In this document: one piece after another, positions 34,667 through 35,091 of the stretch | Layout of the letters: the number at the start of each line of letters is the position of its first letter | Position numbering within the stretch: the first letter of the stretch is position 1 | DNA from: Candidatus Eiseniibacteriota bacterium | GTDB taxonomy: Bacteria; Eisenbacteria; RBG-16-71-46; JABDJR01 | Direction of reading: 5' to 3' | Length of the DNA: 64,000 bases | Assembly: GCA_963783375.1 (NCBI GenBank) | Contig: CAWANH010000029.1 | Location: 1,056,001 to 1,120,000 of the forward strand | Program-made: the position numbers and the translations under genes | Notes under the pieces: model-generated | What the model saw: only the letters and a program-made list of their open reading frames with translations | The model's database searches: none | What the model was told of the DNA's origin: nothing

Positions 34667-35000
34667 TGGCGGAGAGGGAGGGAGAGTCGCGCTCCTCGCT
34701 CACGCTCGGCGCACGACATCCCCCGGTCGCCGTGCCCCATCCGGCGCGAGCAGGCCAACCATCCTCGATGCTTTCACATGGCGGAGAGGGAGGGAGAGTC
34801 GCGCTCCTCGCTCACGCTCGGCGCACGACATCCCCCGGTCGCCGTGCCCCATCCGGCGCGAGCAGGCCAACCATCCTCGATGCTTTCACATGGCGGAAGG
34901 AGGGAGAGTCGCGCTCCTCGCTCACGCTCGGCGCACGACATCCCCCGGTCGCCGTGCCCCATCCGGCGCGAGCAGGCCAACCATCCTCGCTGCTTTCACA
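34667..35000 (-). repeat. tRNA-Ser(GGA)-anchored tandem array, 3 units of 110-112 bp
   Basis: Units start at 34667, 34779 and 34891; the last has a 2-bp deletion in the tRNA-derived core. Homologous to the 30693 array. Confidence 0.97.
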
Positions 35001-35091
35001 TGGCGGAGAGGGAGGGATTCGAACCCTCGGTACAGTTACCCGTACACACGCTTTCCAAGCGTGCTCCTTAAGCCAACTCGGACACCTCTCC
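35001..35091 (-). tRNA. tRNA-Ser (GGA)
   Basis: GGAGAGGTGTCCGAGTTGGCTTAAGGAGCACGCTT-GGA-AAGCGTG, long variable arm, ends GCCA. Confidence 0.97.

Follow-up and report, generated by a model that had tools for sequence, protein, structure and literature searches.

tRNA-linked repeats (TLRs), reportedly first described in 1978, are gene-free units that lie directly behind tRNA genes of Escherichia coli in few copies and carry a tail of 17–19 bp; they include the tyrT/tyrV 178-bp repeats, RttR (RF00391) and rrA/rrB/rrF. The accessible part of PMC8144298 counts 22 E. coli TLRs at ten loci, one to five at each, with 18–19 bp of the upstream tRNA or rRNA at the end, and states that they had no known function as of 2021. 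In that same part the definition of a TLR is silent on a mirror arm, on DNA-type loops and on mobility.

When an island enters a tRNA or tmRNA gene, the tRNA is restored and a 3′ fragment of it ends up displaced, and islands also occur in tandem, according to the accessible text on Islander (PMC4383910); the arrays reported here are similar in having an intact tRNA, inserted DNA, a displaced 3′ fragment and stacking. The tandems in that text need an integrase for each member, whereas units of ~110 bp encode nothing. In the Ssn/SRM system, short hairpin repeats are cut as single-stranded DNA by a site-specific GIY-YIG nuclease; these repeats are dispersed and flank the nuclease gene of ~94 aa in N. 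meningitidis, and the accessible main text makes no mention of tRNA (PMC11893778). Within the literature covered by our search, with many subscription papers lying outside it, we found no account of the present tRNA-Ser repeat family or of a TLR mechanism, and the accessible parts of a preprint on structured arrays (10.64898/2026.09.22.753630) and of a paper on tRNA fragments (PMC9897764) contain no such repeats.

As judged from their sequence, the arrays share the positional features and the layout of TLRs, with no detectable sequence homology. The RtT model (RF00391) gave no match at the arrays, and its best match in the genome lies elsewhere, at 18.2 bits against a cut-off of 45. The E. coli tyrT units have the same inner build as the arrays, namely a reverse copy of the tail start, hairpins with C-GNA-G loops and then the tail. 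Compared with the TLR tail of 18–19 bp, the tail is 17 nt in the window arrays and 18 or more where an A precedes TCCC, and an array holds 1–6 units instead of one to five. Unlike the E. coli TLRs, the units are ~110 bp long, are confined to tRNA-Ser and have a left arm of 4–5 bp, and a separate family exists at tmRNA. Unlike in a CRISPR array, whole units repeat identically and there are no unique spacers. The TLR-like design is already known from E. coli.

Anatomy of the two tRNA-Ser arrays

The window, i.e., the whole stretch of 64,000 nt that was analysed, contains two arrays, both downstream of the 3′ end of a tRNA-Ser gene on the minus strand. The tRNA-Ser(GGA) gene (35001..35091, minus; ARAGORN; Rfam RF00005, 55 bits) anchors the array studied here, and its last 17 nt (35001–35017) are the repeated tail. 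The preliminary description had placed three units of 110–112 bp behind this gene, and these were recovered as unit 1 (34891..35000, minus, 110 bp), unit 2 (34779..34890, minus, 112 bp) and unit 3 (34667..34778, minus, 112 bp), together with a truncated fourth unit (34608..34666, minus). As a tandem repeat the array has a TRF score of 685 with 97% matches.

Read on the tRNA strand, each unit consists of a spacer, GGGAY, an insert of 25–34 nt and a tail that runs from TCCC to CCA and repeats the final 17 nt of the tRNA. Unit 2 has its spacer at 34835–34890, its hairpin at 34792–34834 and its tail at 34779–34795, and scores 74.7 bits with the covariance model R1; in its hairpin GGGA pairs with the TCCC of the tail, followed by an inner stem and a GC-GTGA-GC loop. 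Unit 3 has the same sequence, with the hairpin at 34680–34722. Unit 1 (R1, 58.8 bits) has a 56-nt spacer, a hairpin at 34902–34944 and a tail that is 2 nt short, a gap that may be real or an assembly error. The truncated unit has a spacer of another type plus GGGAT, without hairpin or tail; its first 42 nt agree with a spacer of a related genome (G002) at 36 of 42 positions, and its GGGAT end sits at the usual distance (GGGAY offset 54).

Array 1 (30693..31225, minus) is anchored by tRNA-Ser(CGA) (31226..31313, minus; ARAGORN) and has five units of 108, 108, 104, 105 and 108 bp of the same family as the tRNA-Ser(GGA) units. The motifs common to both arrays and the shared last 30 nt of the two tRNA-Ser genes are as first described, and tRNA-Ala(CGC) and tRNA-Arg(ACG) are indeed without an array. 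The near-identity of units within each array held for units 2 and 3 behind tRNA-Ser(GGA), which are identical, but array 1 is mixed, with unit 3 short by 4 nt and unit 4 (30801–30905) having a spacer of another type. One short-read contig from a public run, possibly of the source sample, is identical to 30958–31095 and spans one unit junction of array 1; among the DNA contigs of sequencing runs, none spans the arrays.

An Rfam search of the window returned only tRNA and SRP RNA at the gathering score, and even at E 10 the units had no credible match. The SRP RNA is of the large bacterial type (RF01854, 201 bits; 28022–28287) and lies between tRNA-Ala and the dnaX-ybaB-recR genes. A palindromic repeat of 41 bp also occurs in the window, three times in tandem (30476–30626). 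It is a member of a dispersed REP-like family, which has dozens of copies in the genome, often beside a second 16-nt palindrome (24 copies); a Y1 transposase was not found in this genome.

Distribution in the genome, in its relatives and in other phyla

In the genome that contains the window (G000), copies of the gene's own end were found downstream of 5 of 57 ARAGORN calls, i.e., four CCA-ending tRNA-Ser genes with 5, 3, 2 and 4 units, and tmRNA. The remaining tRNA-Ser genes, (TGA) and (GCT), to which the preliminary description had pointed, thus both carry arrays. None was seen at the other 52 calls, among them two further 'Ser' calls without CCA, or at tRNA-Sec, despite its sharing the last 8 nt. 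A match with three mismatches behind tRNA-Thr was discarded, as it is really the neighbouring tRNA-Gly. BLAST and R1 found 13 strong units in G000, all behind tRNA-Ser, with the best match elsewhere at 22.3 bits, although R1 includes the tail and is biased toward tail sites. A tail-free hairpin scan gave 37 matches (12 of them the units) vs 19 and 34 in block shuffles, and since this is no excess there is no dispersed family. In being undispersed, and in having no flanking single-domain GIY-YIG gene, the units differ from the SRMs.

Arrays also occur in five relatives of G000, three from its genus and two more from its family (G001–G004 and G006). Across these six genomes and five metagenome contigs, 24 of 28 tRNA-Ser genes are followed by 1–6 units, with six at one locus, and one of the four genes without units sits at a contig end. 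G003 has arrays at 4/4 tRNA-Ser genes and at tmRNA, and at 0/32 other tRNAs (36 of 45 tRNA matches examined). When 151 genomes of the phylum were searched, only G000–G004 and G006 gave scores above 30.2 bits among the matches listed; the weaker ones among the matches listed are mostly 32–47 nt, about as long as the T-arm and tail of a tRNA together, and 121 weaker matches lie beyond those listed. Every full-length homologue found lies immediately behind a tRNA-Ser gene, rather than being scattered without tRNA association.

The tmRNA units form a different family with the same logic, in which the left arm and the beginning of the tail base-pair and enclose a hairpin. They measure 81 bp in G000 (C3:189090–189336, L002), and 124 and 206 bp in G003, 106 bp in G001 and 45 and 83 bp in G004 (L205, L206, L207), the 45-bp unit of G004 being a minimal version; no tmRNA array was seen in G006. 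In G006 (L204, C14:2946339–2947462), tRNA-Ser(TGA) and three units are followed by 622 bp with a short ORF and then by a partial tRNA copy, itself trailed by a near-identical unit.

An earlier, narrower pattern matched 0 GTDB records, while the final pattern returned 98 stretches: 12 with the arrays of the relatives, 80 others with a unit and 6 without. This pattern required a Ser-type tail and is silent on other tRNAs. Matches came from records titled Steroidobacteraceae, Opitutaceae, Patescibacteria, Gemmatimonadota, Vicinamibacterales, Deltaproteobacteria and others, and most of these matches sit immediately downstream of tRNA-Ser. With 80 further loci in one tRNA-Ser scan the layout is common, and the tRNA-Ser(GGA) locus is therefore a clean example of it and not a unique one. 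In many units of other phyla the left arm is a longer mirror (reverse-complement) copy of the tail, and one Deltaproteobacteria record (L071) has a unit with the hairpin type of the window behind tRNA-Ser. Units next to each other at one tRNA were unrelated, with an identity of no more than 0.31, at 6 of 16 multi-unit loci; one more such locus contains Ns.

Covarying stems and the type of hairpin

Whole units have unremarkable folding energies as RNA (z −0.2 to −1.0), and so have the hairpin parts (z −1.9 and −0.8 as RNA, −0.15 and −1.4 as DNA), so that the case for structure rests on comparison. The preliminary description had read a compensatory change from the stems of the two window arrays. 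These two arrays differ by one T-A to T.G wobble and one double change that depends on the alignment, and compensation is therefore taken only from a larger alignment, where the stems do covary. This alignment (A2) holds 18 hairpins chosen from 30 distinct ones, leaving aside near-duplicates, a variant with a deletion and the short type of G006, plus three of other phyla (two seemingly misaligned). The short G006 hairpins were left out here and in the tree test because MAFFT on whole units misaligned them. In A2, two-sided changes occur in 11/11 inner pairs, 0/500 shuffles equal the alignment on any of five measures, and every slid control scores lower.

As the shuffle control ignores relatedness, changes were also counted on a tree. 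Among 23 hairpins, the 5-bp outer stem shows 6 joint pair-preserving changes against a null mean of 0.39 and maximum of 3 (0/3000 simulations). A single branch probably accounts for two of the six, and the tree itself derives from these short sequences; this count may be regarded as supportive of stem covariation. The four GGGA/TCCC pairs show no compensatory change and thus add nothing to the case for covariation. In the units of other phyla the next pair outward covaries with the tail, T facing A in 21/24 and A facing T in 22/31. The arrays are real, target-specific and structurally constrained.

Covariation can also arise from template switching, which is able to create stems and multi-base compensatory changes (PMC8794818, accessible part). 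The units might on this basis be neutral by-products, in which switching at the T-arm mirrors the tail and keeps the stems paired, slippage at the tails amplifies the units and gene conversion spreads them among similar tRNA-Ser genes. The longer mirror arms in other phyla, the frequent identity of neighbouring units next to decayed distal ones, and the failure to find an enzyme would all suit this account. Template switching should, however, perfect the stems, yet tandem G.A mismatches (which replace CC/GG pairs in the upper stem of several units), T.G wobbles, the GGGAY internal loop and strand-biased C-GNA-G loops persist, and it leaves unexplained the fixed spacer length, the same hairpin type in L071 and the stacking of unrelated units at one tRNA. 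We consider a neutral origin quite improbable.

A GCGNAGC or GCGNNAGC apical loop, i.e., GCGN(N)AGC, is present on the tRNA strand of 19/30 hairpins and on the antisense strand of 0/30, with 2.1 in shuffles (at most 8). The same strand bias was seen in 95 units of other phyla, where C-GNA-G triloops number 151 sense, 11 antisense and 24 in shuffles, with all four bases found at the middle position. A reading of these loops as antisense UUCG (28 counts) was rejected, as GCA, GGA and GTA loops make up 94/155. As DNA, GCGNAGC and GCGNNAGC fold into very stable mini-hairpins that occur at single-stranded origins and promoters, and r(GCGAAAGC) is much less stable than the DNA form (PMC13037366, accessible part). 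Given this stability and the strand bias of the loops, the tRNA-like strand has likely been selected as folded DNA rather than RNA.

The units could instead be functional RNAs, co-transcribed with the tRNA and cut behind each CCA into small RNAs or tRNA-end mimics, as has been proposed for E. coli RrA/B/F. They lie on the tRNA strand and have CCA ends, and no terminator-like site was found in 34550–35320, which makes read-through plausible; a promoter-like site was not found either. Three rRNA-linked TLRs are transcribed and processed and bind CsrA and Hfq, whereas 19 tRNA-linked TLRs score below 0.01 for CsrA binding (both from the accessible part of PMC8144298), and in the present units GGA lies in the stem and not in the loop. 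Folded as RNA, the hairpin of unit 2 has z −1.9 in sense vs +0.6 in antisense; the 10 T.G wobbles in the hairpins suit RNA equally well. The loop of the tRNA-Ser(GGA) array is also a GNRA tetraloop, and 5 such loops occur among 22 inserts, but in the 95 units of other phyla it is the GNA triloops that are enriched and not the GNRA tetraloops (19 vs 17 in shuffles). The copy number of 0 to 6 per locus, and the finding of full-length units only within family f1 (151 genomes of the phylum; among the matches listed), also speak against a functional RNA, which we regard as unlikely.

A structured, target-specific family under selection had been proposed at the outset. The structure and the target specificity are supported; the stem had been drawn as RNA, whereas the loop census points to DNA, and selection is something we infer; the constraint on the stem may serve the element and not the host.

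Tails, exchange and the origin of the units

The tail matches the local tRNA over its first 13 nt in 56/57 units, and in 15/15 at loci with a tail unlike the common one. Hairpin identity is 0.72 across the loci of one genome vs 0.49 between orthologous loci of different genomes, and the nearest hairpin neighbour is in the same genome in 24 of 33 cases, with metagenome contigs grouped by record prefix, which need not be single genomes. As hairpins and spacers are exchanged between loci while tails are cognate, the boundary of exchange lies at TCCC; such exchange fits gene conversion as well as mobility. All 38 distinct spacers counted are 51–59 nt long, though only ~0.4–0.5 alike (this count omits a 75-bp unit, whose spacer is 20 nt, and two units with deletions). 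Damaged or tail-less units are mostly found at the distal end of arrays, which is compatible both with polar addition and with poorer homogenisation at array edges.

The reading that we prefer, at about even odds, is that these tRNA-linked repeats of the TLR layout are non-autonomous single-stranded-DNA hairpin cassettes, copied in at the tRNA-Ser T-stem by an enzyme encoded elsewhere and then amplified. In its favour are the target specificity, the covariation, the cognate tails, the fixed spacer length, the DNA-type loops on one strand, the stacking of unrelated units at one tRNA and a single locus (L105) with a GIY-YIG gene between two tails. The tRNA-like strand would fold as single-stranded DNA, with GGGA paired to the TCCC of the tail as the T-stem is in the tRNA, the TCCC junction would be the point of recombination or insertion, and the 17-nt tail would be duplicated from the target tRNA. 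Slippage or unequal crossing-over between tails would then give rise to identical neighbours, with distal units decaying. Against this reading, there is no candidate enzyme and no cargo-bearing member of the tRNA-Ser hairpin family.

The units might also be what remains of integrative elements that target tRNA genes, reduced to their attachment sites, with a visiting tyrosine integrase acting on them in double-stranded form. A full 7-bp T-loop overlap, as modelled for such integrases, is missing here, since only the final one or two T-loop bases belong to the block in common. The partial tRNA-Ser(TGA) copy of G006, 622 bp downstream and with near-identical units after both copies, would fit this origin, and the fixed spacer length together with weak positional motifs could reflect arm sites. 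However, a double-stranded mechanism needs no strand-biased hairpin. No integrase (PF00589) matched near any array, phage records gave no match and plasmid records only matches of E 0.3–1, and none of the 4 pattern stretches in the viral scan has the hairpin. This origin, too, seems to us rather improbable.

Against the cassette reading, a scan of metagenomes for cargo-bearing units of the tRNA-Ser hairpin family gave 6 stretches, made up of 5 ordinary arrays and 1 chance match, the viral scan gave none either, and neither a circle nor an empty/filled strain pair was seen. In G000, which is 97% complete, no small GIY-YIG protein, Y1 transposase or reverse transcriptase was found. GIY-YIG matches in G000 lie in frames of 628 and 401 aa and those of the relatives in frames of 132–789 aa, none of them at arrays; a standalone GIY-YIG below 130 aa was found in none of the six array-bearing genomes. 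Integron attC sites lie in arrays and fold as single-stranded DNA; they have covarying stems, a variable apical part, R boxes (AAC/GTT) and a linked intI-attI. The arrays are integron-like in their presumed folding, their covarying stems and their variable apical part, and G000 has an integron integrase (C28:633602–634765, L245; TIGR02249, 462 bits); unlike in attC, the stem base is GGGA/TCCC, and the integrase lies on a separate contig and does not track the arrays. This integrase was rejected as the enzyme, being present in 33/61 genomes without relation to arrays; it was not found in the array-bearing G002 and G004 and is present in the array-less G008.

In the family described here the stems covary, one strand has loops of the DNA type, the spacer keeps a fixed length and exchange stops at TCCC. 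Measurable constraints of this kind have not been reported for the E. coli TLRs, and they make it possible to address by experiment whether the units act as RNA or DNA and are selfish or neutral, also on the like-built E. coli tyrT repeat. If an enzyme is found, it would represent a new site-specific mechanism of single-stranded-DNA insertion. A broader proposal, which we put forward as doubtful, is that the TLRs of different bacteria were all left behind by one kind of undescribed system. It would place cassettes of folded single-stranded DNA into tRNA T-stems and duplicate 17 nt of the target in doing so, comparable to the repeat duplication of CRISPR adaptation or to integron capture. Target-specific families (tRNA-Ser, tmRNA) would coexist in one genome, and a small GIY-YIG or other single-strand enzyme would act in trans.

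A small GIY-YIG gene, as in the Ssn/SRM system, does occur in a record titled Woesearchaeota (L105:496–1012), where an empty unit is followed by a unit that has a shorter tail and encodes an 81-aa GIY-YIG protein (E 7.5e-15). This gene sits between two tRNA-Ser tails, and it is a single case in another hairpin family. At three further loci (L056, L085 and L089), units come after a copy of the tail with no intact tRNA directly upstream, and these may mark where islands end on their far side; L056 includes a 255-bp unit with another repeat inside it. Finally, in a Gastranaerophilales record (L088) two types of unit are interleaved behind tRNA-Ser(CGA), one of which resembles a putative proline-tRNA end.
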